From positions 1 to 32,000 of the forward strand of contig NZ_MPKA01000058.1 of the NCBI RefSeq assembly GCF_001945605.1: a stretch of DNA of 32,000 nucleotides. The letters are read 5' to 3'. The number at the start of each line of letters is the position of its first letter. The stretch's first letter is position 1. The notes beneath the pieces were generated by a model. The model was given only the letters and a program-made list of their open reading frames with translations. It did not search any database and was not told the origin of the DNA. Source of the stretch: Dubosiella newyorkensis. GTDB taxonomy: Bacteria > Bacillota_I > Bacilli_A > Erysipelotrichales > Erysipelotrichaceae. The position numbers and the translations under genes are program-made. Positions 11,770 through 30,710 of this stretch are shown here, one piece after another.

Positions 11770-11780
11770 AGACTTCCTCC

Positions 11781-13364: not shown

Positions 13365-13377
13365 AATTATACCTCCT

Positions 13378-13408: not shown

Positions 13409-13416
13409 TTTAATTG

Positions 13417-15510: not shown

Positions 15511-15533
15511 AGTGATTCTCCTTCTTATTCAAC

Positions 15534-15592
15534 AAAAAAAAGCAAAGGCCTAGTATCCACCCTTGAAAAAGGGATGTTTACGACGCCTTTGC
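15534..15592 (-). terminator. Leader terminator (attenuator) between the glnN promoter and the glnN start codon
   Basis: Minus-strand RNA has GCAAAGGC...(43 nt)...GCCUUUGC followed by U8. It ends 23 nt before the glnN ATG, inside the roughly 90-nt leader. Confidence 0.6.
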
Positions 15593-15595
15593 CGT
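15580..15595 (-). promoter_or_regulatory. Candidate ANTAR-type hexaloop hairpin overlapping the 5' arm of the leader terminator
   Basis: Minus-strand ACGGC-AAAGGC-GUCGU forms a 5-bp stem (one G-U) with a hexaloop carrying A at position 1 and G at position 4. It uses the GCAAAGGC bases the terminator needs. I could not find a convincing second hexaloop hairpin. Confidence 0.3.
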
Positions 15596-15607
15596 TGATC
15601 TGGTTCT

Positions 15608-15635
15608 ATTATAACGAGATATATATTCTTGTCAA
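15608..15635 (-). promoter_or_regulatory. Sigma-A-type promoter for glnN
   Basis: On the minus strand: TTGACA (15635-15630), 16-nt spacer, TATAAT (15613-15608). Confidence 0.55.
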
Positions 15636-15636
15636 T

Positions 15637-15651
15637 AATTTTCTGAAAAAA
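15637..15651. promoter_or_regulatory. CodY-box-like element
   Basis: AATTTTCTGAAAAAA matches the CodY consensus AATTTTCWGAAAATT at 13 of 15 positions. It lies immediately upstream of the glnN -35 element. Confidence 0.3.
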
Positions 15652-15652
15652 G

Positions 15653-15669
15653 ATGAAAAATATTTTCAT
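15653..15669. promoter_or_regulatory. Perfect 7-3-7 palindrome, candidate operator
   Basis: ATGAAAA-ATA-TTTTCAT sits between the divergent promoters, 3 nt upstream of the -35 of the GS-like gene. Confidence 0.3.
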
Positions 15670-15672
15670 TGT

Positions 15673-15701
15673 TTGAAAGAAGATCCGTCATTGCGTATAA
15701 T
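15673..15701 (+). promoter_or_regulatory. Sigma-A-type promoter for the GS-like/ANTAR/ybaK operon
   Basis: TTGAAA (15673-15678), 17-nt spacer, TATAAT (15696-15701). RBS aggag at 15712-15716. Confidence 0.55.
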
Positions 15702-15723
15702 TAGAAAGATACAGGAGATTTTT

Positions 15724-16902: not shown

Positions 16903-16907
16903 TCGGT

Positions 16908-17489
16908 ATGAAAGAAAAGAAAAAAGTCATGATCATCGGAAAGATCAAAGAGAAGGCTCCGTATAAAGAGCTTTTTCCCTCTTCGATCTATGCGCCATTG
17001 ACGATCTATGAAAGTGTTGTCGAAGCTAAACACAAGCTAGCTTCTGAGCATTTCGATCTCATTTGGATCCAGGGATTGCTTCAAGTACAGCAAGCTAAAG
17101 AGATCGCGATGGTCTACAATACGATGGTCCTTTTGTTTGTTAAAGCGACGATCTATGATCAAGTTGCCTATCAAATGCGGGATGCACGCGTTTTCGTATT
17201 CTCGTTCCCGATTTCTCGATCGACAATGAGCCAAGTCGTCTCGATGGTGGAACAATTCAGCGAAAAGACAAAAACGTTAGAACGAAAGCTTTTCCTTGCA
17301 CAGAAAAAGTTGAAAGATATCAAGATCATCGATCGCTGCAAGATGGAATTGATGCACTATTTTCATTGGAACGAAGATAAGGCACATCATTATATGGAAA
17401 AATGCGCAATGGATCAAGGCGTTTCAAAGTTGCAGATCGCGCATACGATCCTAGCGAAACTCGAATTAAAAAAGGAAGCGAATGCATGA
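16908..17489 (+). CDS. ANTAR-domain RNA-binding antiterminator with a pseudo-receiver N-terminal domain
   Basis: 193 aa from the ATG at 16908, 6 nt after the GS-like stop. Coiled-coil linker, then ANTAR helices IIDRCKMELMHYFHWNEDKAHHYMEKCAMDQGVSKLQIAHTIL. The receiver-like N-terminus lacks the acidic pair (VMIIGK). FDLIWIQG replaces the usual DLxxxD phospho-acceptor context. Confidence 0.85.
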   Translation: MKEKKKVMIIGKIKEKAPYKELFPSSIYAPLTIYESVVEAKHKLASEHFDLIWIQGLLQVQQAKEIAMVYNTMVLLFVKATIYDQVAYQMRDARVFVFSFPISRSTMSQVVSMVEQFSEKTKTLERKLFLAQKKLKDIKIIDRCKMELMHYFHWNEDKAHHYMEKCAMDQGVSKLQIAHTILAKLELKKEANA

Positions 17490-17974
17490 AAAAACAAAAA
17501 ACGAACGCGATGCGAATACTAGAATCCAACAAGATCCCTTATATAGAGCATGAATACGAGCATCGTAAAGACGATCCAGTCGATGGGATCCATGTTGCGC
17601 AAACGATCGGAGAACCTGTAGAACGTGTCTATAAAACATTAGTATGTACGGGAAGCGATAAAGACAATTATGTTTTCATGATCCCGGTCGATCAAGAGCT
17701 GGATCTAAAAAAATGCGCCAAGGCAGCACATCTCAAACATATCGAAATGCTCCCTCTTAAAGATCTTACGAAGACCACCGGATATATTCGTGGAGGATGT
17801 TCGCCTTTAGGAATGAAGAAAGTCTTCAAGACATGGATCCAAGAGGACGCGATGCTTTATGACACGATCTTTTTTTCAGGAGGAAAGATCGGTCTACAAA
17901 TCGAGGCAAACGCCAACGATCTATCGAAGGTGATCGATATTGAATTTGCCGATCTGATCAAAAGCGCAAACTAG
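17486..17974 (+). CDS. ybaK: Cys-tRNA(Pro)/Cys-tRNA(Cys) deacylase, YbaK family
   Basis: 162 aa from the ATG at 17486, which forms an ATGA overlap with the ANTAR stop. N-terminus MKKQKTNAMRILESNKIPY and GYIRGGCSPLG are typical of YbaK. Confidence 0.9.
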   Translation: MKKQKTNAMRILESNKIPYIEHEYEHRKDDPVDGIHVAQTIGEPVERVYKTLVCTGSDKDNYVFMIPVDQELDLKKCAKAAHLKHIEMLPLKDLTKTTGYIRGGCSPLGMKKVFKTWIQEDAMLYDTIFFSGGKIGLQIEANANDLSKVIDIEFADLIKSAN

Positions 17975-17995
17975 GGACCACTTGGTCCTTTTTTT
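17975..17995 (+). terminator. Rho-independent terminator after ybaK
   Basis: GGACCA-CU-UGGUCC followed by U7. Confidence 0.75.
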
Positions 17996-18041
17996 AAGCT
18001 TGTTTCTCGAATCGCGCGATCGACAATGCTAGAATCATAAT

Positions 18042-18485
18042 ATGAAAAAATTGAGCTGGGTCATCGTTTATAGCTTTATGTTTGGCTTTTTGTTCTTTAT
18101 GATCATCGCTTCTCTCGTTTCAAATCGTATGGAGCCTGCCGCTGTAGTCTGCAATGATTATTTTGTGGAGTTCGACGGTTTGATCTATGATCAGATTCCA
18201 TATTCCAATATACGCTCGATCGATTATATTCGAAATGGAGAGATTCGAAGAAGCGGTAAACTCGATGGTCTTGAATATAAAAACTATGTATGTGGGCATA
18301 CAAAAGTTATAGGCTATGGAAAATGTGATGTTTTTTATTATATTTCCAATCCGAACTTTATCGTTTTGAAGACCAAGGATAAAACGATCCTTTATAACGA
18401 AAAGAGCGCTACAGAGACAGAAAAAATGTTTGACGAGATCTCAGCTCATATTCCAAAACGATCGGAGGAATCAAAAAATGAATGA
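18042..18485 (+). CDS. Hypothetical membrane-anchored protein
   Basis: 147 aa with one N-terminal TM helix (VIVYSFMFGFLFFMIIASLV). I recognise no motif. Its stop overlaps the downstream GH13 start by 8 nt. Confidence 0.6.
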   Translation: MKKLSWVIVYSFMFGFLFFMIIASLVSNRMEPAAVVCNDYFVEFDGLIYDQIPYSNIRSIDYIRNGEIRRSGKLDGLEYKNYVCGHTKVIGYGKCDVFYYISNPNFIVLKTKDKTILYNEKSATETEKMFDEISAHIPKRSEESKNE

Positions 18486-19788
18486 ACCATGGTACAACAA
18501 AAGTGTTTTTTATCAAATTTATCCATTAGGGGCTACAGGCGCTCCCTATGAAAATGATCATCAAGAAGTGCATCGTCTTCTACAATTGGAGGAGTGGATC
18601 CCCAATTTAAAAAAGCTAGGGATCGATTGCATTCTTTTGAATCCTGTCTTTGATTCAACATCGCATGGGTATGATACGATCGATTATAAAAAAGTCGATC
18701 CTCGTCTAGGGGACAACGCAGATTTGAGCCACTACGTATCGCTATGTCACAAGAAGGGGATGCGCGTCATTCTCGATAGTGTGTTCAATCATGTAGGAAG
18801 AGAGTTTCCTCCTTTTTTAGATGTGCTCAAGAATAGGGAAGCCTCAAAATACTTGAACTGGTTTCACATTGACATGAATCAAAACAACAGCTATGACGAT
18901 CATTTATCTTATTTAGATTGGGAGGGGAATTCCAATCTTGTCAAGTTGAATCTAAAAAATCCAGAGGTCAAAAACTATTTGTTCGATGTCGTCAAGTTCT
19001 GGGTCGATACATTCGATATCGATGGTCTGCGCTTGGATGTGGCGTATTGTTTGGATCCAGATTTTCTAAAAGAACTGCATACGTTCGCGAAAAGCTTGAA
19101 ACCGGATTTCTTCTTGTTAGGAGAAACGCTGCATGGCGATTATAACCAATGGGTCAACGAACAAATGCTCGATTCTTGTACGAATTACGAGTGCTATAAG
19201 GGATTGTATTCGAGCTTCAACACTCGAAACTTCTTTGAGATCCTATACTCGTTCAATCGGCAATTCGGCAATGAGCAATGGTGCCTTTATAAAGGAAAGC
19301 ATTTATTCAATTTTGTCGATAACCATGATGTTGAGCGGATTGCTTCGATCTTAGATGTAAAGGCCAATTTGCCGCTGATTTATACGATGCTCTTTACGAT
19401 GCCGGGTATTCCTTGCCTGTATTATGGAAGCGAATGGGGAATCGAAGGGAAAAAAGGCAATATGGATCGGGACATTCGTCCAAATATCGAGTCGTTGAAA
19501 TGGAACGCTTTGACAGACCGTATCCAAAAACTGATCGAGATCCATCATGATCATTCGGCTTTGATCGATGGCGATTATTCCCAGATCGCCTTGACGAATA
19601 CCGCGTGTATCTATCAAAGAAAGAATGCCGAGGAGACGATTTGGTGCTGTATCAACTTGGATGAAAATCCGGTCGATCTTCCTGTCAATGTCGATCAAAA
19701 TATGGAAGAGCTTCTCAGCAATGAAAAAGAGAAGATCGAAAATACAGTGCATTTGGGATCGCAATCCGCAAAAGTTTTGCTTTTTTAA
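18478..19788 (+). CDS. GH13 alpha-amylase-family glycoside hydrolase
   Basis: 436 aa from the ATG at 18478 (RBS ggagg at 18465-18469). All four GH13 regions are present: VILDSVFNHVG, GLRLDVAY, LLGETLHG, FVDNHDVER. No signal peptide. Confidence 0.9.
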   Translation: MNEPWYNKSVFYQIYPLGATGAPYENDHQEVHRLLQLEEWIPNLKKLGIDCILLNPVFDSTSHGYDTIDYKKVDPRLGDNADLSHYVSLCHKKGMRVILDSVFNHVGREFPPFLDVLKNREASKYLNWFHIDMNQNNSYDDHLSYLDWEGNSNLVKLNLKNPEVKNYLFDVVKFWVDTFDIDGLRLDVAYCLDPDFLKELHTFAKSLKPDFFLLGETLHGDYNQWVNEQMLDSCTNYECYKGLYSSFNTRNFFEILYSFNRQFGNEQWCLYKGKHLFNFVDNHDVERIASILDVKANLPLIYTMLFTMPGIPCLYYGSEWGIEGKKGNMDRDIRPNIESLKWNALTDRIQKLIEIHHDHSALIDGDYSQIALTNTACIYQRKNAEETIWCCINLDENPVDLPVNVDQNMEELLSNEKEKIENTVHLGSQSAKVLLF

Positions 19789-19808
19789 TTGCATTTGTAC
19801 TTATTAAT

Positions 19809-19829
19809 GAGGGATTCCCCTCTTTTTTT
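19809..19829 (+). terminator. Rho-independent terminator after the GH13 gene
   Basis: GAGGG-AUUC-CCCUC followed by U7. Confidence 0.75.
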
Positions 19830-19984
19830 AATTTCTATAAAAATATAACTGATATAAATGTGAAATGCACATAAAGTTTGTAAAATCAAGGGATATGCTT
19901 TACAAACTGAGATCCTTCCTGTAAAGTTTGGACTTGTGAATTCGAAGTACGAATTCGGACTAAAAAACAGGAGGAAATCTAAGG

Positions 19985-20941
19985 ATGAAAAATATTTCAA
20001 AAGTAGGATTGGCCACTGCATTACTCATGTCCCTTCAACTTTTCACACCTGTCATGGCTGCTGAGAAACAAGACGGCCTCGGGATCGGAAAAGCGATGGA
20101 ATATTATAAAGTTGAATTAAATAATGAAAACTCGCTTCATGCTGTGGTCAGCGAAGCCTTTAACAAAGATATTGAACAATTTGAAAAGAAAGAAACGGAA
20201 AAAGGAATCCAATTTGTATCGGATTCAATCATCATCGATGTCAATGGTGTCGATCTAGAGCAAGAAGGATTCCAAATGGTAAAGATGGCGATGACAACGA
20301 AAAAGAAAGAACTCTCGCCGCTCTTGCCAGCGAGCGCGAAACCGCTTGCCCAAAATGAAGATATCGTCAACATCAAAAAAGCATTGATCGAGATCAAAGA
20401 TGAGCAAACTCCAGAGCTCACAGTTCCTGAAACGCTAAAGACACAAGAAAACCAAGAAATCAATATCGATTCTTTGATCGAAGCAACGGATAATTCTGGA
20501 GACGTCGATGTTCAAATCGATGGGGAAGTCAACTACGCTATCCCTGGAATCTATACTCTGAATGTGCAAGCAAAAGATGCCAGCGGGAACATAACTCAAA
20601 AAACAATCCAAGTCGATGTTGAAAAAGACGACTTTTATGATCGCATCGCGCAAGCGGCCAAAGCGCAGCTTGGGGTTTATCAAGATTGCACGATGCTTGT
20701 GACAAACGCTTTAAAAGCGGTTGGGATCAATTTCCACGGTTGGCCAGAAGAGTATTTATCGCTTGGTGATTTGACTAATGATCCAGTTCCTGGAGACATT
20801 GTCGTCTATTCGGGTCATGTTGGACTTTATATTGGAGATGGACAAGTCGTTCATGGCGGTTGGAATGGAAACCAAACCGTGATTGCATCGGTGGAATGCG
20901 ATAAACCTTTGATCGGGTTCGTTCACGTTCGTAAACCATAA
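19985..20941 (+). CDS. Secreted NlpC/P60-family cell-wall peptidase with an Ig-like middle domain
   Basis: 318 aa. Signal peptide ending PVMAAE. Ig-like segment GEVNYAIPGIYTLNVQAKDASGNITQKTIQV. NlpC/P60 catalytic Cys context YQDCTMLV and His context YSGHVGLYIG. Confidence 0.85.
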   Translation: MKNISKVGLATALLMSLQLFTPVMAAEKQDGLGIGKAMEYYKVELNNENSLHAVVSEAFNKDIEQFEKKETEKGIQFVSDSIIIDVNGVDLEQEGFQMVKMAMTTKKKELSPLLPASAKPLAQNEDIVNIKKALIEIKDEQTPELTVPETLKTQENQEINIDSLIEATDNSGDVDVQIDGEVNYAIPGIYTLNVQAKDASGNITQKTIQVDVEKDDFYDRIAQAAKAQLGVYQDCTMLVTNALKAVGINFHGWPEEYLSLGDLTNDPVPGDIVVYSGHVGLYIGDGQVVHGGWNGNQTVIASVECDKPLIGFVHVRKP

Positions 20942-20952
20942 TATTTCATCAA

Positions 20953-20978
20953 GACTCTCTTATAGGGAGTCTTTTTTT
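20953..20978 (+). terminator. Rho-independent terminator after the NlpC/P60 gene
   Basis: GACUCUC-UUAUA-GGGAGUC followed by U7. Confidence 0.75.
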
Positions 20979-20981
20979 ACG

Positions 20982-21015
20982 AAAAAAAGAGGATCCATTA
21001 TGAAGGTGGTCCTCT
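20982..21015 (-). terminator. Terminator for the convergent lipoprotein gene
   Basis: Minus-strand AGAGGACC...GGAUCCUCU (one bulge) followed by U7. Confidence 0.55.
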
Positions 21016-21036
21016 TTTTCACAAAATATATAGAAT

Positions 21037-21525
21037 CTAGTCGTCTTTTTCAGAACCGATCGCATCTTGTGTTGCTGCGAGCATTGGTCGGATATCAAGA
21101 TCTACGACATCTTTCAACTCTGGATTGGTTGGTTTTCCGTTTTCGTCAACTGTAACGGCATCAACACCGTTTTCCTTGATGAAGTTTTCTACATATTCGA
21201 CTTGATCAAGCCAATCTGTATCGATGCTCATTTGTGTGTCTTTGTCTGGTCCATAGAGCTGTTCGAGTTCAGTGATCGCGTTTCCATCTTGATCGACGAA
21301 TTCCATCATCACATCCGAAAGCTGATCGCCATCTTTAACGATCGTAGCGTTGACAGTTCCTCCATTATCATAGACAGCAGTGCCTTTAAGCTCTTTCTTT
21401 TCCGTTGTTGTTTCCGTTGTTTTGTCCTCTTTGGCACTATCGTCTTTTGGGGTTTCTGTGCTTGAATTTGCGCAGCCCGCCAATAAAAGTAAGGAGAGAG
21501 CGGTTAAAGTTAATTTTTTGTTCAT
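21037..21525 (-). CDS. Lipoprotein, paralog B of a tandem pair (possible divergent FMN-binding-like domain)
   Basis: 162 aa with lipobox LLAGC. Shares W..QV.Y.E.FI..NGVDAV..D..G with the upstream paralog. RBS aggagg with 8-nt spacing. Confidence 0.75.
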   Translation of the reverse strand: MNKKLTLTALSLLLLAGCANSSTETPKDDSAKEDKTTETTTEKKELKGTAVYDNGGTVNATIVKDGDQLSDVMMEFVDQDGNAITELEQLYGPDKDTQMSIDTDWLDQVEYVENFIKENGVDAVTVDENGKPTNPELKDVVDLDIRPMLAATQDAIGSEKDD

Positions 21526-21589
21526 GGTGTAAGCCTCCTATAACCCTAATTCTAAACGGAGTTGAACGAATTTCAATGTTGATGCTCAT

Positions 21590-21614
21590 AAAAAAAAGGC
21601 TGATTTCTCAGCCT
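21590..21614 (-). terminator. Rho-independent terminator between the two lipoprotein genes
   Basis: Minus-strand GGCUGAGAAAUCAGCC followed by U8. Confidence 0.75.
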
Positions 21615-21628
21615 CGTTCATTGTAAAT

Positions 21629-22093
21629 TTATTTCGCGTCTGCTTCTTTGACAGCTTCCATGATGTCAGTCAAATTGATCGTGCATCCAGATTTTAGATC
21701 TTCATCTTCTGCATAACCATCTTTGTCCAATTTAACTGCGTCAACACCGTTGTCGATGATGAATTGTTCAAGATATTTTACTTGTTCATACCATTCTTTA
21801 CCGATGCTAGAAGCTTCTTTCATTTTATAGTCATCGCCAAGTTCTTTTTTAGAAGAACCGTCTTTGATCTGGTCGATCGTGATCGAAGTGATCTTTCCGT
21901 TTTCTTTTTCGATATCCGCTTTTGTAACATTACCATCTGCATCTGTTACTTCTGCAGAGGATTGTGCTCCACCAGCTTCATCTGTAGTTGTGTTTACAGA
22001 TTCATCTGTTGTTTCTTCTTTTTTTGTATCGTTACTTGCGCATCCTGCCAACAAGAACAAAGACAACGTGCCTAAAATGAGTTTCTTATTCAT
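21629..22093 (-). CDS. Lipoprotein, paralog A (possible FMN-binding-like domain)
   Basis: Start moved to the second ATG (22093), which gives 8-nt spacing from AGGAGG. Lipobox LLAGC. C-terminal DLKSGCTINLTDIMEAVKEA resembles the D-x-x-S-G-A-T end of FMN_bind domains. Confidence 0.75.
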   Translation of the reverse strand: MNKKLILGTLSLFLLAGCASNDTKKEETTDESVNTTTDEAGGAQSSAEVTDADGNVTKADIEKENGKITSITIDQIKDGSSKKELGDDYKMKEASSIGKEWYEQVKYLEQFIIDNGVDAVKLDKDGYAEDEDLKSGCTINLTDIMEAVKEADAK

Positions 22094-22152
22094 TCTCATT
22101 ACCTCCTACGCACCTATTGTACTATAAAAATAGATGAATACAAATATTTAAC

Positions 22153-24237
22153 TCAAAAAGACTTAAAAAGCATATCATTATAATCCGGAAGTGGCCAATC
22201 CGATTTGCTTACATTCTTTTCGATCAGATCCGTCAGCCTACGGATCGTCTCCATGAGCGGAAGCAGTTCATCGCAAGCGAAGCGAGCCATGATTTTTTCA
22301 TTTTCTAGTGGGGTCTCGATCAATCGTTCAAGTGTTCCGACGTGTTCGGAAACGATCTCAAGCGGTTCGTTGATCTGTTTCAGGATCTTTTCTTCCATAG
22401 GCGCTTGGATGCCGCATGCCTTTTTTGTTTGGATGATTTGAGCAAGTTTCGCCTCGTAATCAAAGATCGCCGGCAATATTTCTTTTCGAAGCATGTAAAC
22501 CATGGTCTTGGCTTCGATGATGATCACTTGATAATAGTTCAACAGCAAGATATTCTCTCTTGCATAAAGCTCTTGCGGAGAATAGACATTATGTTTTTCA
22601 AAAAGAGAAAGATTTTTTGGATCTGTATAGTGAGGCAGAGCATCCGCTGTGCTTTTTAATTCAAGAAGGCCGCGCCGCTTAGCTTCCTCTTTCCAAGAAT
22701 CGCTGTATCCGTTTCCAGAAAAACAAATCCGATTGTGTTCTTTTAAAGTCCGTCGAATGATCTGGATCAGCGCTTCCGTTCTTTTGTGTTCTGGATAGCA
22801 CTCCAGCTCGGTTGAAAACTGATCGAATTCTTCCGCTACGATGGTATTCAAGATCGTATTCGGGCACGATATGTTCAAATTCGAGCCAAGCATCCGAAAC
22901 TCGAACTTATTTCCCGTAAAAGCGAATGGAGAGGTGCGGTTGCGGTCCGTCGAGTCTTTAGCTAAGCTAGGGAGCACTTGAAGACCGAGCTCCAATTTCT
23001 TATCGATCTGATCCACATATTCGCTGCCTTCTTCGATCGCCTTCAAGATCGCTGTGAGCTCTTCGCCTAAGTAGATCGAAATGATCGCTGGCGGAGCTTC
23101 ATTGCCTCCTAAGCGGTGATCGTTGCCAGCGCTCGCCACAGAAATACGAAGAAGGTCTTGATATTCGTCGACCGCTTTGATGATCGCAGTAAGGACCGTT
23201 AAAAAGCGGATGTTATCTTGTGGCGAATCGCCAGGTTCTAGCATGTTTTCACCCTCATCGGTCGAGAACGACCAGTTGTTGTGCTTGCCGCTTCCGTTGA
23301 TCCCATCAAAAGGTTTTTCATGAAGCAGGCAAACAAAACCATGATGCTTCGCACATTTTTGAAGCACTTCCATCGTTAGCTGGTTTTGGTCGTTGGCTAA
23401 ATTCGTAGACGTATAGACAGGAGCGATCTCGAATTGACAAGGAGCGACTTCCTTATGTTCGGTTTTAGCGAATACGCCTAGCTTCCATAATTCCTCATCG
23501 ACTTCTTCCATGAACGCTTTGACTCTTTCATCAATATTGCCGAAATAATGGTCGTCGAGTTCTTGTCCTTTAACTGGCGCGCAGCCAAAGAGCGTACGTC
23601 CTGTCACCATTAGATCGATCCGTTGCTTATACATCTTTTCATCGATCAGGAAATACTCTTGTTCTGGGCCGACTGTGATGTTGATCTTCTTGACGTTATA
23701 GCCCATTAAATCGAATAAGCGGATCGCGGAATCATTGAGGGCCTCGATCGAGCGGAGAAGAGGTGTTTTTTTATCCAACGCGCTTCCATCGTAAGAACAG
23801 AATAAAGTCGGGATATACAATGTTTTATCTTTGACAAACGCGTAGCTCGTCGGATCCCATGCCGTATATCCTCTCGCTTCAAATGTCGCGCGAAGACCCC
23901 CGGAAGGGAAGGAGGAAGCGTCCGGTTCGCCTTTGATCAGTTCTTTTCCGCGAAAATCAGAAAGGATCGAATTTTCTCCTGTCGGATTGATGAAGGCGTC
24001 ATGTTTTTCAGCGGTGATCCCTGTCATTGGCTGAAACCAATGGGTATAATGGGTGGCGCCTTTTTCCATCGCCCAGTCTTTCATCGCGTTGGCGACCACA
24101 TCGGCGATCTCGGCAGGAAGAGGCTCTCCATATTCCATGACTTGATTAAGCTTTTTAAAGACAGAATTTGGTAAATACTTCTGCATTTCGTGTTTCGAGA
24201 AGACGTTGCACGCAAAATATTCATCCACAGTTTTCAT
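22153..24237 (-). CDS. glnN: Glutamine synthetase type III (copy 2)
   Basis: Shares the GS-III motifs of copy 1, with roughly 60% identity by eye. I chose the ATG at 24237 over the track's TTG at 24243. Lies 23 nt after the pyrG stop, with no terminator or promoter between them. Confidence 0.92.
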   Translation of the reverse strand: MKTVDEYFACNVFSKHEMQKYLPNSVFKKLNQVMEYGEPLPAEIADVVANAMKDWAMEKGATHYTHWFQPMTGITAEKHDAFINPTGENSILSDFRGKELIKGEPDASSFPSGGLRATFEARGYTAWDPTSYAFVKDKTLYIPTLFCSYDGSALDKKTPLLRSIEALNDSAIRLFDLMGYNVKKINITVGPEQEYFLIDEKMYKQRIDLMVTGRTLFGCAPVKGQELDDHYFGNIDERVKAFMEEVDEELWKLGVFAKTEHKEVAPCQFEIAPVYTSTNLANDQNQLTMEVLQKCAKHHGFVCLLHEKPFDGINGSGKHNNWSFSTDEGENMLEPGDSPQDNIRFLTVLTAIIKAVDEYQDLLRISVASAGNDHRLGGNEAPPAIISIYLGEELTAILKAIEEGSEYVDQIDKKLELGLQVLPSLAKDSTDRNRTSPFAFTGNKFEFRMLGSNLNISCPNTILNTIVAEEFDQFSTELECYPEHKRTEALIQIIRRTLKEHNRICFSGNGYSDSWKEEAKRRGLLELKSTADALPHYTDPKNLSLFEKHNVYSPQELYARENILLLNYYQVIIIEAKTMVYMLRKEILPAIFDYEAKLAQIIQTKKACGIQAPMEEKILKQINEPLEIVSEHVGTLERLIETPLENEKIMARFACDELLPLMETIRRLTDLIEKNVSKSDWPLPDYNDMLFKSF

Positions 24238-24260
24238 TGCCAAAATTTCCTTTCTTCTTT

Positions 24261-25886: not shown

Positions 25887-25909
25887 ATTCTATACCTACC
25901 TATGAAAAC

Positions 25910-25938
25910 ATTTTAGAGGTTCACTATTTGTCTGTCAA
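25910..25938 (-). promoter_or_regulatory. Candidate sigma-A promoter for pyrG(-glnN copy 2)
   Basis: On the minus strand: TTGACA (25938-25933), 17-nt spacer, TAAAAT (25915-25910). Confidence 0.45.
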
Positions 25939-26009
25939 AAAGTTTTCAGAACTTTTTCATTTCCATTTCTGCGATATGATAGAATAAGAAGAAATGATTG
26001 GAGGCTTCC

Positions 26010-27185
26010 ATGTTCCATATACCTAAAACATTGAAAGAAAAAGAAAACTTATACCGAAGACTGCTTTTGTTCGCGGTCGGGTTATTCATGCTCGTTCTCT
26101 ATTTTGAAAAGATTTTATGGATCGTTTCGATCATCGTCAATATATGCATGCCTTTTATTATCGGAGGAGCGATCGCTTTTATTTGGAATACGATCGCTAA
26201 TAATTTGATCAATTTTTATTCTCTTATATCCCATCGGTCGGAAAACAAAGTGATCCGCTTTATCGCCAATATATTGTCGATCATGGTGTTCGTGCTCTTG
26301 TTGGCTTTGTTTTTATTTTTGATCATGCCTAGAGTGATCTCTTCTTTTCAAACGCTGCTTTCCCTTATGCCGCAAACGATCCATAATATCTATCATTGGG
26401 CTTATTATGCGTCAAAACCGATCCCTTATGTCCATCAATGGCTGCGCACGATCAACGCCGATCCAGGGAATATATCGCAAGTGCTCGAAAGTTTGTTTTC
26501 GTGGGTGATTTCGGGAAGCGCGAACGATATTATCGGAAATGTCTATTCTGTTCTGACCAACACGTTCAGTCTGCTTTTTTCTACTCTTGTTTCGATCATG
26601 TTCGCTGTGATCGTCTTGTTCAATAAGCAAACGGTCGTCAAAGAGGGCTTTTATTTAATGCGCGCGTATCTTTCGAATAAGCGTTATGCGAAAACAGTCC
26701 ATATCTTGAGCTTGATCCGCAATACGTTCACTTCCTATATTGGTGGGACTTGTACCGAATGCATTATTTTAGCGACGCTCGTAATGTTTTTCGCTTCGCT
26801 ATTCCAGATCCCTTTCGCGTTTTTGGCTGGGATTCTTGTAGGGATCGGCGCGCTCATTCCAATGTTTGGCGCTTTGGCGGCCGCGATCATCGCCGCTCTG
26901 CTGATCGCTGTTGATACCCCGATCGAAGGACTATACTTCATTATTTTATTTATCTGCATCCAGCAAGTGGAAGGGAATTTTATTTATCCAAATGTCGTAG
27001 GGAAATCGGTAGGCATCCCACCTATTTATGTGATGATCGCTGTGACTCTAGGGGCGAATGTCGCGGGTATTTTAGGAATGGTGTTTTTTATTCCGATCTT
27101 TTCGTGTCTCTATCAATTGATCAAGGAGGACGCGAGCAAGCGAATCGAGATCAAAGATAAAAAAGAAGGCGTATTCGATGAATAG
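26010..27185 (+). CDS. AI-2E family (PerM/YdiK-like) transporter
   Basis: Multi-TM protein with PFIIGGAIAFIWN and QQVEGNFIYPNVVGKSVGIPP motifs. ATG at 26010 with RBS ggagg at 26000-26004. Confidence 0.88.
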   Translation: MFHIPKTLKEKENLYRRLLLFAVGLFMLVLYFEKILWIVSIIVNICMPFIIGGAIAFIWNTIANNLINFYSLISHRSENKVIRFIANILSIMVFVLLLALFLFLIMPRVISSFQTLLSLMPQTIHNIYHWAYYASKPIPYVHQWLRTINADPGNISQVLESLFSWVISGSANDIIGNVYSVLTNTFSLLFSTLVSIMFAVIVLFNKQTVVKEGFYLMRAYLSNKRYAKTVHILSLIRNTFTSYIGGTCTECIILATLVMFFASLFQIPFAFLAGILVGIGALIPMFGALAAAIIAALLIAVDTPIEGLYFIILFICIQQVEGNFIYPNVVGKSVGIPPIYVMIAVTLGANVAGILGMVFFIPIFSCLYQLIKEDASKRIEIKDKKEGVFDE

Positions 27186-28125
27186 GAGCGCACTATGTAT
27201 CCGGATGTTGATGTATTTGGCGAGCCATTCTCGTGTTAAGATCGATGAATTGGCCGATTTTCTTGATACAAAACCTCGAAATATCCGCGCTTTTAAAGAG
27301 GAACTGGAAACCGCGGGCTATCAAATCGAACACAAAACGGGAAGATATGGTGGATATTCCTTAAAAGAATCGACATTTCTTCCTTCGCTTGCCCTCAGTG
27401 TCGAAGAAAGGAAAGCTCTTGAACAAGCGGAACGGTTTTTAAAAGCGCATCCAGAATTCGCGTACGGAAAAGAGTATACGAACGCTTTTATCAAGATCGC
27501 GAATCAAGACCGGATCGATTCGCAACAGAACTCGTTTTACAAATCGGATCATCGCCTTCCTCTTTCTCTTTTTCAGCAAACGCATGTCAAGATCATCGAG
27601 GAAGCGATCGAACAAAAGAAACTCGTCGAGATCGTTTATCAAGGACGGAAAGATTCGTTTCCTAAAACGAGAACGATCGAACCTTACGCGCTGATCAATC
27701 AGCGGGAAAAGAATTATGTGCTGGCTTATGATCGGGAAAAGGACGATTATCGTTATTTCCGCTTTTCAGATAAAAGGTGGCTTTCATGTGCTTTGCTTGC
27801 GACTCATTTTTTAGCTAGGGATGACGTTCCTTATCATAAAGAGGTGGGCGAAGAAGAAGAGGCTCTTGTCACGCTAGCGATCAATCGCGATTCGATCCGC
27901 TTTTTTTTAGAAGAATATTGGGGAGAAGAGATGCAGATCGTCCAAGAGACGCCGTCTCAATTGTTTTATTCTTTTAAAACCCCAAGCACGCGTCAGCTTT
28001 TGAACCGAATCTTTGCGATGCGAGGAAGCGTTCATCTTGTGGCTCCAAAAGAGCTTGTCGATTCCTTTCGTGCTCAGCTCAAAGAGCTTCTATGCTATAA
28101 TAATAAGAACGATCAAATAAAGTAG
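27178..28125 (+). CDS. WYL-domain transcriptional regulator (N-terminal HTH, central WYL, C-terminal extension; YafY/CapW/BrxR/PafBC-like architecture)
   Basis: HTH LMYLASHSRVKIDELADFLDTKPRNIRAFKEELETAGYQI. WYL domain LVEIVYQGRKDSFPKTRTIEPYALINQREKNYVLAYDREKDDYRYFRFS. The start overlaps the AI-2E stop by 8 nt. Confidence 0.85.
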   Translation: MNRSALCIRMLMYLASHSRVKIDELADFLDTKPRNIRAFKEELETAGYQIEHKTGRYGGYSLKESTFLPSLALSVEERKALEQAERFLKAHPEFAYGKEYTNAFIKIANQDRIDSQQNSFYKSDHRLPLSLFQQTHVKIIEEAIEQKKLVEIVYQGRKDSFPKTRTIEPYALINQREKNYVLAYDREKDDYRYFRFSDKRWLSCALLATHFLARDDVPYHKEVGEEEEALVTLAINRDSIRFFLEEYWGEEMQIVQETPSQLFYSFKTPSTRQLLNRIFAMRGSVHLVAPKELVDSFRAQLKELLCYNNKNDQIK

Positions 28126-28134
28126 GTGATATCT

Positions 28135-29631
28135 ATGCTGCATGTCAGCGACTTGATCCACGCAAAACGTTGTGAACGTTTTGCTTATAATTGTCGATAC
28201 GAAAAAATCGAACATGAACCTTTTTATCATCTTAAAACGCCGTATTCCCACTTATGGAGCGCTTATTTAAATATAGAGGATGTTGGTTCGGGAAAGGTAG
28301 GAGATTCGAATGAGAAGACTTTTCAACTTCTTGCCAAGCATAAAGTCCTCAAGAACGCCCGGTTCTCCTACAAAGAACTAAGAACGAAGATCCCTGTCTT
28401 GATCCAAGAAGAAGATGGAATTGTTTTGATCTATCCTTTTTTAAGCGCGAATCCAAAAGAGAGCGAAGCACTCAGGATCAAGATCGATACGCTTATTTTA
28501 GAAGAAGCGGGTTTGAAGATCAAAGCGATCAAAGCGTTATCCTTGAATAAAGAGTATTGCCGGAAGGATGCGCTCGATCTGAATGAACTCTTTGTTTTGA
28601 GCGATCATTTATTCAATCGGCGCAACAAGCCAAGCAAGCCGATCTTAGAGCTTATCGATCAGATCGAAGTCGATCTAGATCTTGAGATCGACCTTCTTGA
28701 CACGCTTTTTTCCTCTTCGGCGCCTAGCGTCGTTCATTCGCGCATCTGCACCCAAGGAAGAAAGTGCTCGTATTATGATTTATGCTTTCAAGAAGAAGAA
28801 AAGGAGCCGAACGATTCGATCTTGTTTTTGTCGACTTCGCAAAACAAGCTAGAGGCTTATGAAAGGGGAGTCACGCAAATCAAGGAGCTCGACCCTTCCT
28901 TGCTGGAGGGCTTTCCTCTTCAATACGCTCAATATATGGCTTCGAAAATGAATCGGACGTTCATCGATGGATTGGCGCTGCAAACATGGTTGTCGAAGAT
29001 CGAGTATCCGATTTCGTATCTAGATTTTGAATGGGACACTTTTCCGATCCCTCCTTACCAAAATATGCATCCTTTCGATGTCTTGTGTTTTCAATATTCT
29101 TTGCATATTGAAAGAAAAAACGGAACGTTAGGACATGTTGATTTTTTTGGAACAGGAGATTGCCGCAAAGATTTTATCGAATCGTTGATCGAAAATGTTC
29201 CAAAAGAAGGAACGATTTTAGTCTACAATATGGATGGTGCTGAGAAGCTGCGACTGATCCAGTTGAGCGAACAATTTCCTGAGTACGAAAAGGATCTGAT
29301 GGCGATCTGCGAGCGGATGATCGATCTGAGCAAGCCTTTTGAGCAAGGGATCTACTACGACAGCCGCATGCGTGGACATTATTCTTTGAAAAATTTGCTT
29401 CCTGTTTTTCGTGCTGATTATACGTATGAGGATCTCGATATTCAAAACGGGATGAGCGCTGTATATGCGTATCGAAATTATGAAAAAAGCAGCGCGAGCG
29501 AACAGGCGGATATCCAACATGCGATCCGGGTCTATTGTATGATGGACACTTATGCTGAATATGTCATTTTTCATGGCCTGCAGCATCAACTTGAACAATA
29601 TCAAAAACAAATCATGAAAAGCGAGGATTGA
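28135..29631 (+). CDS. DUF2779-family protein: N-terminal Cas4/RecB-like region with 1+3 Cys cluster, C-terminal RNase-H-like (3'-5' exonuclease fold) region
   Basis: C-terminal YLDFEWDTFPIPPY...FQYSLH...LVYNMDGAEKLRL...MIDL...GHYSLKNLLPV...YCMMDTYAEY matches my memory of the DUF2779 consensus. N-terminal KRCERF plus ICTQGRKCSYYDLC. ATG at 28135 with GGTGA RBS; an alternative GTG at 28126 abuts the WYL stop. Confidence 0.75.
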   Translation: MLHVSDLIHAKRCERFAYNCRYEKIEHEPFYHLKTPYSHLWSAYLNIEDVGSGKVGDSNEKTFQLLAKHKVLKNARFSYKELRTKIPVLIQEEDGIVLIYPFLSANPKESEALRIKIDTLILEEAGLKIKAIKALSLNKEYCRKDALDLNELFVLSDHLFNRRNKPSKPILELIDQIEVDLDLEIDLLDTLFSSSAPSVVHSRICTQGRKCSYYDLCFQEEEKEPNDSILFLSTSQNKLEAYERGVTQIKELDPSLLEGFPLQYAQYMASKMNRTFIDGLALQTWLSKIEYPISYLDFEWDTFPIPPYQNMHPFDVLCFQYSLHIERKNGTLGHVDFFGTGDCRKDFIESLIENVPKEGTILVYNMDGAEKLRLIQLSEQFPEYEKDLMAICERMIDLSKPFEQGIYYDSRMRGHYSLKNLLPVFRADYTYEDLDIQNGMSAVYAYRNYEKSSASEQADIQHAIRVYCMMDTYAEYVIFHGLQHQLEQYQKQIMKSED

Positions 29632-29633
29632 TC

Positions 29634-30611
29634 ATGCCAAATATTATTACGCATTCTTTATTTGCTCAGGAGCTATTAAATAGCTTGGACGCAAAATGGC
29701 TGAATGAGCGAGAGCATCTTTACACGATCGGAAGCAATGGTCCCGATTTTCTCTTTTTTTCTGGTCTTGAGCCAAAAGCTTTATTCTCGAACCGTGAGCA
29801 GGAAAATGTGCTCCGAGCGATCGGAGGCAAGCTTCATAAAGGAAATGTCAACGCCTTTTATGCAAGCGCTCTCGATTCGATCTCGAAAGAAAGCGATCCA
29901 AGCATCAAGCTCGATATGATGGCTTATGTTTGTGGTCATTTATGTCATTGGGCATTGGATTCGACAGTACATCCTTATGTTTATTACCGAACAGGGAAAG
30001 GACATCTTCAAAACAATTTCAACCACCACCGCATGGAATCGGTGCTGGATTCGATCATATTGAAAGTCAAGAAAAACACCACGATCAAGGATTTTTATAC
30101 GCCTGCGATCGCGAATTGTTCCTTGTCAGAATCTAGAGCGATCGCTAGAGTCTATATTCCTGCGATCACCTCGATCTTCAATACAAAAATCGAACCCCAT
30201 ATGATCAAAGAAACACTCGACAATTGGCATTTTATTCAAAAGGCGGAATATGATCCTAGCGGCCATAAGTTGAGTTCACTGAAAAAGATAGAAAAGGGGC
30301 TTCGGAAAAAGAATATGGCTAGTGGTCTGATCGTTCCAAATGTTCCGGAAGATAATTATGATGTGTGCAATCTGCTGCATAGAGCTTGGAGTCATCCTTG
30401 CGATGCTTCTTTAGTTTATACAAAATCTTTTTTTGATTTGTATGAGGAAGCGATGAAGAAAGCTTTGGATGCGATCGCTCTCTTTCTAAAAGCGGTGCAA
30501 GATCCGAAAAACAAAGAGGAGTTTTTAGAGTTTTTAGGGGATCGCAACTATAATACAGGAATAAAGAATCCACCAGAAATGAAAAATTTCGATGTATGCG
30601 ATTTCTTTTAG
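29634..30611 (+). CDS. Zinc-dependent phospholipase C / P1-nuclease-superfamily protein, cytoplasmic (no signal peptide)
   Basis: N-terminal IITHSLFAQ and GSNGPDF. HWALDSTVHP compares with HYFGDIDTPYHP of C. perfringens alpha-toxin, and HHRMES with HSKYEN. ATG at 29634 with RBS gagga; the ORF overlaps the DUF2779 stop. Confidence 0.65.
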   Translation: MPNIITHSLFAQELLNSLDAKWLNEREHLYTIGSNGPDFLFFSGLEPKALFSNREQENVLRAIGGKLHKGNVNAFYASALDSISKESDPSIKLDMMAYVCGHLCHWALDSTVHPYVYYRTGKGHLQNNFNHHRMESVLDSIILKVKKNTTIKDFYTPAIANCSLSESRAIARVYIPAITSIFNTKIEPHMIKETLDNWHFIQKAEYDPSGHKLSSLKKIEKGLRKKNMASGLIVPNVPEDNYDVCNLLHRAWSHPCDASLVYTKSFFDLYEEAMKKALDAIALFLKAVQDPKNKEEFLEFLGDRNYNTGIKNPPEMKNFDVCDFF

Positions 30612-30633
30612 AGCGTGTAAACGCTCTTTTTTT
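30610..30633 (+). terminator. Rho-independent terminator ending the AI-2E/WYL/DUF2779/PLC-like operon
   Basis: AGAGCG-UGUAAA-CGCUCU followed by U6, overlapping the stop codon. Confidence 0.8.
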
Positions 30634-30710
30634 CTTGAAACTTTTACTATAGACCGATGAAACAATTTTCAGTATAATGATTTGGTAACACAAAAAAGAG
30701 AGGTGACTTG

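Follow-up and report, generated by a model that had tools for sequence, protein, structure and literature searches.

A conserved gene cluster of a WYL regulator, a DUF2779 protein and a PLC-like protein in the Erysipelotrichaceae: a candidate DNA-maintenance operon

In Dubosiella newyorkensis, the genes for a WYL-domain regulator, a DUF2779 protein and a cytoplasmic phospholipase C (PLC)-like protein form a genuine three-gene operon, which is chromosomal and vertically inherited across the gut-dwelling Erysipelotrichaceae. We propose, at roughly even odds (about 0.5), that this is an ssDNA-responsive operon for DNA 3'-end processing or maintenance, of the DNA-damage type and not for abortive-infection defence. 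Because it has been inherited vertically across the whole family, it would represent an uncharacterised DNA-maintenance module instead of a mobile anti-phage island. The initial annotation of the 32,000-nt stretch analysed here (the window) had offered both a defence role and a DNA-damage or repair role, of which the latter is the better reading. Its domain calls, the coupled cluster and a plausible control by the WYL protein have stood, whereas the defence island and the toxic effectors held in check by a repressor have not.

In the window, genes for an AI-2E family permease, the WYL regulator, the DUF2779 protein and the Zn-PLC-like protein run head to tail, all on the plus strand, and our reading of ORFs and junctions bears out that they overlap or abut. 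The permease gene (25998..27185) and the WYL gene (27178..28125) overlap by 8 nt (ATGAATAG), and after the WYL stop codon TAG (28123-28125) come GTG (28126) and ATG (28135). Both junctions are as first described. The third one is not: the TGA of DUF2779 (29629-29631) had been taken to overlap the next ORF. Gene starts were corrected from alignments of homologues plus independent gene calls on contigs of the same species, which place the PLC-like start at ATG 29634 (325 aa, with an invariant N-terminus MPN), so that the junction is a 2-nt spacer. DUF2779 starts, by the same evidence, at ATG 28135 (498 aa), with AGGTGA 7 nt upstream. GATC occurs at 16.3 per kb, 4.35 times expectation, equally in the cluster and its flanks, in line with the GATC-rich host signature that had been noticed. 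Nor were RM, Cas, integrase or transposase genes found anywhere in the 32 kb, as had been stated of the close vicinity for the first three. The cluster is surrounded by nitrogen-assimilation genes, with the CTP synthase gene pyrG adjoining.

Pfam profile searches support the domain calls for all four proteins. The permease is a clear AI-2E_transport protein (PF01594, 131.7 bits, E 4e-38), and its gene is present at 31 of the 80 Erysipelotrichaceae loci. It had been counted as a member of a four-gene unit, a view that the relatives contradict: in Faecalicoccus a terminator and a promoter lie between the permease and WYL genes, and in Holdemanella an ankyrin-like gene that has a palindrome and a promoter to itself. 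The AI-2E gene is thus a neighbour outside the conserved module, translationally fused to the cluster in the window lineage only.

Ahead of the four co-oriented genes, the only stretch without coding sequence is the divergent pyrG/AI-2E intergenic region (25887..25997), in which a sequence read and an inverted-repeat search revealed an extended -10-like element (TGATAGAAT) and a palindrome, AAAAAGTT-N5-AACTTTTT, at 25937-25957. The minus strand carries a strong promoter-like site at 25938-25910, assigned to pyrG. We infer that this region also serves as the operon promoter. Dubosiella-like relatives do not conserve the palindrome at 25937-25957. A different one, ACAT-N5-ATGT, is found 27-111 nt upstream of the first cluster gene in 36 of 64 loci (background 0.7%) and is absent from the window; its conservation in most genera fits a candidate operator. 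Within the unit, the claim that there is no internal terminator is only approximately right, as the DUF2779 ORF contains, 27 nt from its start, a perfect 10-bp hairpin whose U tail is poor (28162..28184; -11.4 kcal/mol, z -3.5); it is lineage-specific, being not conserved among 76 homologous DUF2779 genes. The strong terminator proposed at the end of the transcription unit is real (30610..30634): a 7-bp stem with four G-C pairs (30610-30627) precedes the T run TTTTTTTCTT (-10.5 kcal/mol, z -2.7), and a promoter-like site of the next gene follows at 30650-30678. Overall, counts of terminator-like and promoter-like sites between 24 and 32 kb are not above those in shuffles.

Our survey of synteny covered 80 Erysipelotrichaceae genomes. 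DUF2779 has WYL upstream of it in 65 of 76 loci and the PLC-like gene directly downstream in 49 of 77 (median junction -8 nt); the latter is displaced but within 6 kb in ten more and missing from the 6-kb flank in 18. All three genes occur together in 42 of 74 loci, and 39 of 47 DUF2779-to-PLC junctions fall between -16 and +4 nt. Absence of synteny in related genomes would have spoken against a module; the trio is instead conserved, co-oriented and tightly coupled there. Across genera the cluster occupies a fixed position in a housekeeping block, with glnA3/pyrG on one side and pyrK-like/gltD/efp/cmk/der on the other. In Breznakia the trio is intact despite entirely different flanks. Identities of the cluster proteins drop with genus-level divergence like those of the housekeeping flanks, but faster. 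The closest, Dubosiella-like relatives have lost WYL and kept DUF2779 and the PLC-like gene. Upstream, most relatives have a small ankyrin-like gene as well as the ACAT-N5-ATGT palindrome, neither of which is present in the window.

The regulator (315 aa) is a wHTH-WYL-WCX transcription factor. Its WYL domain scores 54 bits in Pfam (cut-off 21.8), confirming the original call, and an Rrf2-like HTH covers aa 3-64 (E 2e-6), whereas the WCX match (E 0.002) stays below the cut-off. A generic WYL model of PADLOC spans aa 6-292 (E 7.5e-28), and searches against PDB sequences gave weak matches to PafBC, BrxR, DriD and CapW. It is plausibly a ligand-sensing regulator that controls DUF2779 and the PLC-like gene. 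WYL factors have been reported to sense ssDNA (PMC11662680, PMC10693628, PMC11804915, PMC12041258); on the other hand, one senses c-di-GMP (PMC11880434), which counts against an ssDNA cue. In the window lineage the regulatory layer looks derived or decaying, because it lacks both the ACAT-N5-ATGT palindrome and an ankyrin-like first gene and because the WYL gene, here joined to the AI-2E transcription unit, is unusually divergent (8 of 51 highly conserved positions deviate, including N32K in the HTH) and has been lost in sister lineages.

The DUF2779 call was confirmed by Pfam (PF11074, 126.8 bits), and published work predicts the family to combine a 3'-5' exonuclease with a PD-(D/E)XK domain in one protein (PMC3985635) and describes it as DEDD-like with a His-to-Tyr change (PMC13621843). 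The two halves differ in their state. Alignments, Foldseek and the AF2 model (pLDDT 95.4) delimit an N-terminal Cas4-like domain (aa 1-235; 28135..28839), matching Cas4 (4r5q) with a probability of 0.89. Its PD-(D/E)XK residues are replaced (D by P87, ExK by Y100/F102, QxxY by D118/L120), while four Fe-S cysteines of Cas4/AddB type are retained (C13, C205, C211 and C217), the Cys cluster being weakly matched by Cas4b of PADLOC. A motif census covered 253 family sequences: 163, among them all close relatives, have none of the three Cas4-like motifs and 64 carry all three; the four cysteines are present in 155 of 164 window-type sequences and in nearly all others listed. The Cas4-like half is therefore predicted to be catalytically dead in the window subfamily, and the idea of a double nuclease does not hold. 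We infer that this half is now a DNA-end or DNA-structure binding module. The C-terminal domain (aa ~285-498; 28987..29631), an RNase H-fold DEDDy 3'-5' exonuclease, appears intact: D297, E299, E370, D397, Y467 and D471 are invariant in an alignment of 28 sequences, and the full DEEDYD pattern, tabulated for the 164 window-type sequences of the census, occurs in 163 of them and, except for P0334, in the other listed sequences. Foldseek matched the model to exonuclease domains of family-B polymerases with probabilities of 0.97-1.0.

The PLC-like protein (29634..30611), all-alpha and devoid of a signal peptide or membrane segment, exceeds the cut-off of PF00882 (Zn_dep_PLPC; 34.3 bits versus 26.8), a model that matches each of the 37 aligned members of its family. 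Invariant are M1, P2, N3, H7, D38, H68, H105, D109, H113, H131, H132, E135 and D139. The PLC/P1 fold that had been assigned is, however, only partly corroborated. Foldseek matched the confident AF2 model (pLDDT 94.8) to none of the solved structures of PLC or P1, a search of PDB sequences gave no match even at E 10, and neither did an hhalign comparison of the family profile with a B. cereus PLC sequence, leaving the Pfam HMM as the sole basis of this putative assignment.

On these grounds we suggest the following mechanism. The WYL regulator would sense ssDNA or a related nucleic-acid cue and raise expression of the operon, an idea based on analogy to CapW, DriD, PafBC and SiwR, in each of which the WYL domain binds single-stranded DNA. 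Immediately after this transcription factor, two translationally coupled enzymes are encoded: the DUF2779 exonuclease, which would trim DNA 3' ends, and the cytoplasmic PLC-like protein, which presumably belongs to the superfamily of Zn-dependent PLC/P1 phosphoesterases and has a full conserved His/Asp/Glu complement; it might strip blocking 3' phosphate or phosphodiester groups or cut single-stranded flaps. A role of this kind agrees with the literature on DUF2779 in Mycoplasma: the best HHpred match of the homologue MMSYN1_0389, quasi-essential in JCVI-syn3.0, is the mitomycin-repair exonuclease MrfB (PMC13621843), and a DUF2779 mutant of Mycoplasma bovis is tabled among selected transposon mutants, together with those of DnaB, HolA, RecD, GdpP and NrnA (PMC7373297).

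In an anti-phage or anti-plasmid system, which we hold to be improbable, the WYL protein would repress exonuclease and lipase/nuclease effectors until infection yields ssDNA; once released, they would attack the membrane or break down DNA of the invader or the host. CBASS, BREX and other systems are indeed under WYL regulators of like architecture (PMC9122588, PMC11662680), generic PADLOC WYL models match the regulator, and the JCVI-syn3.0 paper puts the DUF2779 family under "immunity connections" for its Cas4 homology (PMC13621843). On plasmids, distant DUF2779 homologues whose Cas4 domain is of the active type are found next to AAA ATPases, a dGTPase and NERD proteins, in neighbourhoods that look like defence islands, with a WYL gene 3.5 kb from DUF2779 in Selenomonas pSRC1. 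A mobile, repressor-gated abortive-infection system is nevertheless unlikely, because the locus is fixed in a housekeeping block in many genera, shares the GATC signature of the host and has no RM, Cas, integrase or transposase gene in the 32 kb of the window, because, apart from the weak Cas4b match, neither enzyme matches any PADLOC model, and because no phage homologue of DUF2779 was found and the PLC-like protein's "phage" matches come from metagenomic records that carry no annotation (the one full-length match examined is a bacterial fragment). Moreover, the predicted loss of the Cas4-like nuclease site speaks against effectors of this kind, and toxic effectors are hard to reconcile with several close lineages that keep both enzymes without any WYL gene.

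Another possibility, rather unlikely in our view, is a mixed operon in which WYL and DUF2779 are the functional pair and the PLC-like protein, co-transcribed solely via inherited gene order, acts on lipid, teichoic-acid or envelope phosphodiesters. The Pfam family is named for phospholipase C, and the gene is absent from or displaced in the 6-kb flank at the loci counted above; displaced copies within the Erysipelotrichaceae have a SpoIID/PG-binding gene on one side and a dipeptidase gene on the other. Outside the family the homologues stand alone, twice in cell-envelope contexts; for example, the one in Leptospira precedes PBP1A, bactofilin and an M23 peptidase. Yet most adjacent junctions overlap or leave a gap of at most 4 nt across genera at ~45% protein identity, the DUF2779/PLC-like pair outlasts both the loss of WYL and the complete change of flanks in Breznakia, and the protein combines an invariant MPN N-terminus with the lack of export or membrane signals. 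Doubtful, too, is a pair of constitutively expressed housekeeping nucleases that would turn over nucleic acids or salvage nucleotides, with WYL as a dispensable fine-tuner. MMSYN1_0389 is quasi-essential in JCVI-syn3.0, a minimal Mycoplasma cell, when grown without phage or added DNA damage (PMC13621843), and the DUF2779 mutant of M. bovis shares its table with those of the c-di-AMP phosphodiesterase GdpP and the nanoRNase NrnA (PMC7373297). The loss of WYL in close relatives and the setting among nitrogen-assimilation genes beside pyrG would also agree with such a pair. However, a dedicated conserved regulator and palindrome in most genera argue for conditional expression, and functional orthology of the Mycoplasma proteins is uncertain because they are of an active-Cas4, two-cysteine type.

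Among known systems, defence operons such as those of CBASS and BREX are repressed by the wHTH-WYL-WCX proteins CapW and BrxR. The window regulator shares their three-domain architecture, size (~300 aa) and position directly upstream of its cargo, as well as, in most relatives, a palindromic site in the promoter region. Its similarity to their PDB sequences is marginal (E 0.05-0.2), and, unlike theirs, its cargo is no recognised defence system, the locus lies outside a variable island and the regulator can be lost with the cargo kept. Cas4/AddB-type Fe-S PD-(D/E)XK nucleases share with DUF2779 the arrangement of one N-terminal and three C-terminal cysteines and, for Cas4, the fold-level match, but the window protein has D, ExK and QxxY all replaced, lacks a CRISPR context and is fused to an exonuclease. 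The PF00882 match above the curated cut-off links the PLC-like protein to the trinuclear-zinc phosphoesterases B. cereus PC-PLC, Clostridium alpha-toxin and S1/P1 nucleases, and the order of its invariant His, Asp and Glu residues resembles that of their zinc ligands; it differs in being cytoplasmic, without signal or propeptide, and ~80 residues longer.

Other counterparts are the Mollicutes DUF2779 proteins MMSYN1_0389 and Mbov_0804, which are Cas4-like and DEDD nuclease fusions of the same Pfam family, two-domain layout and DEDDy-type residues, likewise chromosomal and in the related Mollicutes/Erysipelotrichales lineage. In the Mycoplasma protein the catalytic D/E/K residues remain, with only two of the four cysteines, whereas the window subfamily shows the reverse. 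Finally, SiwR/msmeg_1357-56 of Mycobacterium smegmatis, DriD/didA of Caulobacter and the PafBC regulon are chromosomal systems in which ssDNA-sensing WYL factors induce DNA-damage genes. These are activators from Actinobacteria and Alphaproteobacteria with weak sequence similarity to the window protein, and the genes under their control (DinB/YfiT-like, DidA) are unrelated; as in these systems, however, the window WYL gene adjoins putative metalloenzyme/nuclease genes in a chromosomal setting instead of a mobile element, and PafBC is its best match among PDB sequences (E 1e-6).

The cluster at 27178-30611 (+) is a putative WYL-controlled nuclease or metalloenzyme operon with several undescribed features, namely a predicted dead Cas4 Fe-S domain, a PLC-like partner, an ankyrin-like gene present in most relatives and a candidate operator. 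An ORF scan placed the AI-2E permease gene (25998-27185, +), the WYL gene (27178-28125, +), the DUF2779 gene (28126/28135-29631, +) and the PLC-like gene (29628/29634-30611, +) as the initial annotation had them, co-oriented and in this order. The 8-nt overlap proposed between the AI-2E and WYL genes could be read at the junction as ATGAATAG, and at the WYL/DUF2779 junction the TAG is indeed followed directly by GTG, with an ATG 9 nt further on. Homologue alignments, together with independent gene calls on three same-species contigs, assign the DUF2779 start to ATG 28135 (MLHVSD...), preceded by AGGTGA 7 nt upstream, and the PLC-like start to ATG 29634, which yields the invariant N-terminus MPNIITH. 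TGA 29629-29631 thus ends the DUF2779 gene as proposed, but the supposed overlap with the PLC-like ORF does not hold: given the start at ATG 29634, this junction is a 2-nt spacer. The strong terminator predicted at the end of the operon was recovered at 30610-30627 plus a T run (-10.5 kcal/mol, z -2.7). Counts of promoter-like and terminator-like elements in the region showed no excess over shuffles.

A perfect 10-bp inverted repeat (GCAAAACGTT-GTG-AACGTTTTGC, 28162-28184) lies 27 nt into the DUF2779 ORF and spans the Cys13 codon. The hairpin (-11.4 kcal/mol, z -3.5) matches the operon terminator in stability, with a poor U tail. It was set aside as an attenuator because no conservation was found among 76 homologous genes.

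Full-length relatives of the DUF2779 protein number in the hundreds, and those with names all belong to the Erysipelotrichaceae (Dubosiella, Floccifex, Holdemanella, Catenisphaera, Longicatena and Amedibacillus). A pattern scan with one genome per species yielded 426 genomes with a relative. The synteny survey, done by tblastn with seven proteins of the window, covers the best-scoring 80 of these 426 loci, which are apparently all of Erysipelotrichaceae type, although three records are titled as other taxa. The WYL gene lies upstream on the same strand in 65/76 evaluable loci, and the PLC-like gene is found directly downstream of DUF2779 in 49/77 loci and within 6 kb in 10 additional ones. Whether WYL and PLC-like genes co-occur with DUF2779 had been raised as a question for such a survey; they do, all three being together in 42/74 loci. 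The DUF2779-to-PLC junctions are tight (39/47 at -16 to +4 nt, median -8), and the gap from WYL to DUF2779 has a median of 27 nt. On the left, glnA3/pyrG flank the cluster in 36 loci, and on the right a pyrK-like gene does so in 30; in at least 36 of the 80 loci the cluster sits within a conserved housekeeping block. On a 54-kb same-species contig gltD-like, efp, cmk, der, gpsA and hup carry this block further. Breznakia has wholly different flanks, yet there too the ankyrin-like, WYL, DUF2779 and PLC-like genes remain together. Median identities to the window proteins are 76-80% for GlnA3, PyrG and the PyrK-like protein, 45% for DUF2779, 46% for the PLC-like protein and 31% for WYL, so the cluster diverges with the genus as its housekeeping flanks do, but faster, the WYL gene fastest of all.

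The AI-2E gene lies outside this conserved unit. It was found in only 31 of the 80 loci by tblastn; in Faecalicoccus a terminator hairpin and a TACAAT promoter separate it from the WYL gene, and in Holdemanella and related genera the two are kept apart by a gene for 112 aa that has a promoter of its own. Their fusion by an 8-nt overlap, as seen in the window, is specific to its lineage. Directly 5' of the WYL gene, 40/76 loci carry an ankyrin-like ORF of about 112 aa (for example L006:4655-4993, L035:4651-4989 and L042:4645-5025, plus 37 other loci), whose product matches Ank_2 at E 8e-5, is 50-80% identical across genera and is far more conserved than the WYL protein. The ancestral operon probably began with this gene. 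A tblastn search for a copy in the window found none.

In related loci a palindrome ACAT-N5-ATGT, mostly ACATAAATAATGT, is located 27-111 nt 5' of the first cluster gene, be it the ankyrin-like or the WYL gene (in L006, for instance, at about 4599-4611). Exact matches occur in 36/64 loci against a background of 0.7% per 130 nt, and matches with at most one mismatch in 45/64 loci against 9%. At many of these loci a TTGACA -35-like hexamer coincides in part with its left half. Such an arrangement fits the operator expected of an autoregulated wHTH-WYL-WCX factor, and we propose the palindrome as a candidate WYL operator. Near the window's cluster it is absent, the only two matches in the window being distant and inside other genes. 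Since the local palindrome at 25937-25957, in turn, was not conserved when sought in relatives, no operator is assigned in the window.

Pfam HMMs support the domain calls of the initial annotation for WYL, DUF2779 and Zn_dep_PLPC, as well as AI-2E_transport (E 4e-38); an NCBIfam search of the cluster proteins added nothing specific. In the regulator, the WYL domain (PF13280, aa 136-197) scores 54 bits against a cut-off of 21.8. An N-terminal HTH of Rrf2 type (aa 3-64, E 2e-6) reaches 28.5 bits, slightly below the cut-off of 30, and the WCX domain PF25583 is sub-threshold at 18.9 bits (cut-off 23.9, E 0.002), with precomputed PF25583 matches present in several WYL homologues. The PADLOC WYL model covers aa 6-292 (E 7.5e-28). 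By these matches the protein is predicted to be of the wHTH-WYL type represented by CapW, BrxR, DriD and PafBC, with a WYL domain and an N-terminal winged HTH.

It keeps 43/51 positions conserved in at least 80% of 63 homologues. The eight departures are N32K, E38A, K41E, E171A, M201W, D214R, F217V and Y308N, and N32K affects an HTH asparagine that is 100% conserved in the other homologues. Among the 12 matches listed by a word-index search, the closest non-conspecific WYL relative is only 33% identical; the corresponding values are 68% for DUF2779 and 67% for the PLC-like protein. Judged from sequence comparison, this suggests changed or relaxed constraint on the WYL protein, in a clade whose sister lineages lost the gene. 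Dubosiella-like genomes (DUF2779 58-61% identical) contain AI-2E, DUF2779 and PLC-like genes without a WYL gene, and another relative with a 61% identical DUF2779 has WYL, DUF2779 and PLC-like genes in a different left context. In this clade, then, the regulatory layer is labile: WYL is absent or divergent, the window lacks the ankyrin-like gene and the palindrome, and both enzymes are kept. In one Dubosiella-like relative we also observed an aminoglycoside N-acetyltransferase-family gene (PF02522; L091:7414-8229) between the PLC-like and pyrK-like genes.

The DUF2779 protein matches PF11074, a family of the RNase H-like clade F.17, with 126.8 bits, and an exhaustive profile search (E up to 0.001) put the family at 6,631 clusters at 50% identity. 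Its AF2 model is confident (pLDDT 95.4), and Foldseek relates it to family-B DNA polymerase exonuclease domains (probability 0.97-1.0) and to the Cas4 Pcal_0546 (probability 0.89), with weak E-values in both cases. The exonuclease residues D297, E299, E370, D397, Y467 and D471, which comprise the DEDD-type acids and the Y-x3-D motif, are invariant in an alignment of 28 sequences (A5), and C13, C205, C211 and C217 are invariant in a second DUF2779 alignment (A3). We took a census of 253 full-length DUF2779 sequences, in which the exonuclease and cysteine patterns were tabulated only for the 164 window-type sequences: the full exonuclease pattern is present in 163/164 and the four cysteines in 155/164. 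The other listed sequences have the exonuclease pattern too, with one exception, and nearly all of them likewise have the cysteines.

The motifs D, ExK and QxxY of the N-terminal PD-(D/E)XK (DUF83/Cas4-like) domain are said to be conserved family-wide (PMC13621843). Distant members, 20 representatives of which were aligned with the window protein, have canonical ...VDIL..., ...YEVKSS... and A.Q.YVL motifs. In the window protein and every one of its Erysipelotrichaceae relatives the motif positions read P87, Y100/F102 and D118/L120, and there is a 13-residue insertion. All three motifs are absent in 163 of the 253 census sequences (window plus 162 relatives) and all three are present in 64 distant ones. 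With the Cas4-like motifs gone and the cysteines and exonuclease residues kept, the protein is thus predicted to be an exonuclease with a single active site and a putative Fe-S pseudo-nuclease domain.

Two distant DUF2779 genes whose PD-(D/E)XK motif is intact were found in plasmid gene rows. In the row on the Aliarcobacter plasmid pM830MA (L081) the neighbours are a dGTPase and several AAA ATPases, SbcC-like ones among them; in that on Selenomonas pSRC1 (L083) they are an AAA ATPase, a metallophosphoesterase and a NERD protein, and a WYL gene occurs at a distance of 3.5 kb. Both rows may be uncharacterised defence islands.

The PLC-like protein matches PF00882 (Zn_dep_PLPC) with 34.3 bits against a curated cut-off of 26.8, and all 37 of 37 aligned relatives match this model too. 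Its AF2 model (pLDDT 94.8) is confident and near-wholly helical. The zinc ligands of PLC/P1 enzymes are His, Asp, His, His, Asp, His, His and Glu or Asp, plus the N-terminus. Invariant in the PLC-like alignment (A2) are H7, D38, H68, H105, D109, H113, H131/H132, E135/D139 and the N-terminus MPN, a set that we take, by order and spacing, to resemble the trinuclear-zinc PLC/P1 ligands. The fold search suggested by the initial annotation was informative for DUF2779 (polymerase B exonuclease, Cas4) but not for this protein: sequence and Foldseek searches of the PDB returned no solved PLC or S1/P1 structure, the Foldseek matches being noise. Foldseek against viral structures gave one giant-virus protein only, with an uninformative name, and hhalign of A2 against an approximate B. 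cereus PLC sequence produced no alignment. Profile searches of PDB sequences with A2, A3, A4 and A5 gave nothing usable, even at E 10. Excluding the window protein, 16/37 PLC-like relatives match PF07659 DUF1599 weakly (best E 7e-4), which is described as 'nucleotide modification associated domain 1'; a Lactobacillus phage protein annotated in this way is among the Foldseek matches at noise level.

Outside the Erysipelotrichaceae, PLC-like homologues stand alone, in Peptoclostridium, in Leptospira and on one mislabelled 'phage' contig. The Leptospira homologue adjoins PBP1A, bactofilin and M23 genes, and displaced copies within the Erysipelotrichaceae have a SpoIID/PG-binding gene on one side and a dipeptidase gene on the other. 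So tight a translational coupling to DUF2779 speaks for a shared role of the two proteins, and the contexts outside the Erysipelotrichaceae give a hint of a cell-envelope link. Among the 'phage' matches checked, the only full-length one was that contig (L090, GenBank MT835668.1, 'UNVERIFIED: Bacteriophage sp.'), which encodes a PcrA/UvrD helicase, PspA, a HAD hydrolase and a class I aminoacyl-tRNA synthetase besides the PLC-like protein; it was rejected as a phage and is a bacterial chromosomal fragment.

In calling the cluster a candidate surveillance or defence module, the initial annotation was right about the module, which is real and WYL-linked by synteny and domains, but that the cluster is an anti-phage defence system is not supported. 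Although its WYL regulator is of a type controlling defence systems, only generic WYL accessory models of PADLOC-DB 2.0 match and neither enzyme matches a defence model (DUF2779 against Cas4b gives E 0.003-0.01 over 34 residues, the PLC-like protein none). Distant active-type DUF2779 genes do occur on Arcobacter, Helicobacter and Selenomonas plasmids with AAA ATPases, a dGTPase and NERD proteins, but here the locus has its fixed place within a housekeeping block rather than in a variable island, and no phage homologue of DUF2779 was found when sought. The claimed lack of RM, Cas and integrase genes nearby extends to the whole 32 kb, which contains no transposase gene either and consists of nitrogen-assimilation and other core functions; 5819-24243 is a dense nitrogen-assimilation neighbourhood with the large and small GOGAT subunits, asparagine synthase, two type III glutamine synthetases, one of type I and an ANTAR regulator. 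The host GATC-rich signature, too, was borne out, the excess being equal in the cluster (14.8-21 per kb) and its flanks (17.4-17.8 per kb). The window has 522 sites spread evenly over genes, or 16.3 per kb against 3.75 expected (4.35-fold); TCGA is 2.8-fold over-represented, and GTAC, CCGG, ACGT and TTAA occur at 0.3-0.4 of their expected frequency. This oligonucleotide signature is genome-wide.

Moreover, Dubosiella-like genomes retain DUF2779 and PLC-like genes after loss of WYL, and the Mollicutes homologue MMSYN1_0389 is required for normal growth in pure culture. Taken together, the fixed locus, the composition, the lack of defence or phage matches, the WYL loss and the growth requirement make a resident function in nucleic-acid maintenance or repair the preferred reading. 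The published WYL factors CapW, DriD, PafBC and SiwR sense ssDNA (PMC11662680, PMC10693628, PMC11804915, PMC12041258), which makes an ssDNA-responsive operon with a 3'-5' exonuclease mechanistically coherent. In a maintenance or repair function, the PLC-like zinc enzyme might conceivably clean 3' ends.

A bolder proposal, unlikely at about one chance in four, is a family-wide, chromosomally fixed, ssDNA-triggered pathway of DNA-end surveillance of an undescribed kind. The pseudo-nuclease Cas4 Fe-S domain would recognise DNA ends or aberrant structures, the DEDDy exonuclease tethered to it would work with a cytoplasmic trinuclear-zinc enzyme of PLC/P1 type as a 3'-end-cleaning machine, and an ankyrin-like adaptor would be added in most genera. 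If so, the genomic context would provide the first lead to the function of DUF2779 proteins, among them MMSYN1_0389, whose gene is quasi-essential but functionally unassigned in the minimal cell JCVI-syn3.0 (PMC13621843).

Distribution, context and composition all speak for a resident housekeeping or repair module, which is of value mainly because it gives the uncharacterised DUF2779 family a genomic context. Three testable clues absent from the papers searched are a WYL regulator dedicated to the cluster and accompanied by a conserved candidate operator, a predicted Zn phosphoesterase as a translationally coupled and seemingly obligate partner, and a natural separation-of-function variant with an apparently dead Cas4-like site and retained Fe-S cysteines and exonuclease site. 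For defence-island mining the cluster advises caution: a WYL gene followed by nucleases is insufficient to call a defence system.

The Foldseek placement of the window DUF2779 protein agrees with both published assignments, in which PF11074 belongs to a 3'-5' exonuclease clade fused to a PD-(D/E)XK domain (Majorek et al. 2014, PMC3985635) and MMSYN1_0389 has a Cas4-like and a DEDD domain, the latter with a His-to-Tyr change, MrfB being its best match (2026, PMC13621843). The Mycoplasma DUF2779 protein shows the opposite pattern to ours, keeping D/E/K and only two cysteines, whereas the window type keeps four cysteines and loses D/E/K. With Cas4 nucleases the window domain has the four Fe-S-type cysteines in common, but the PD-(D/E)XK residues of Cas4 are absent from it.
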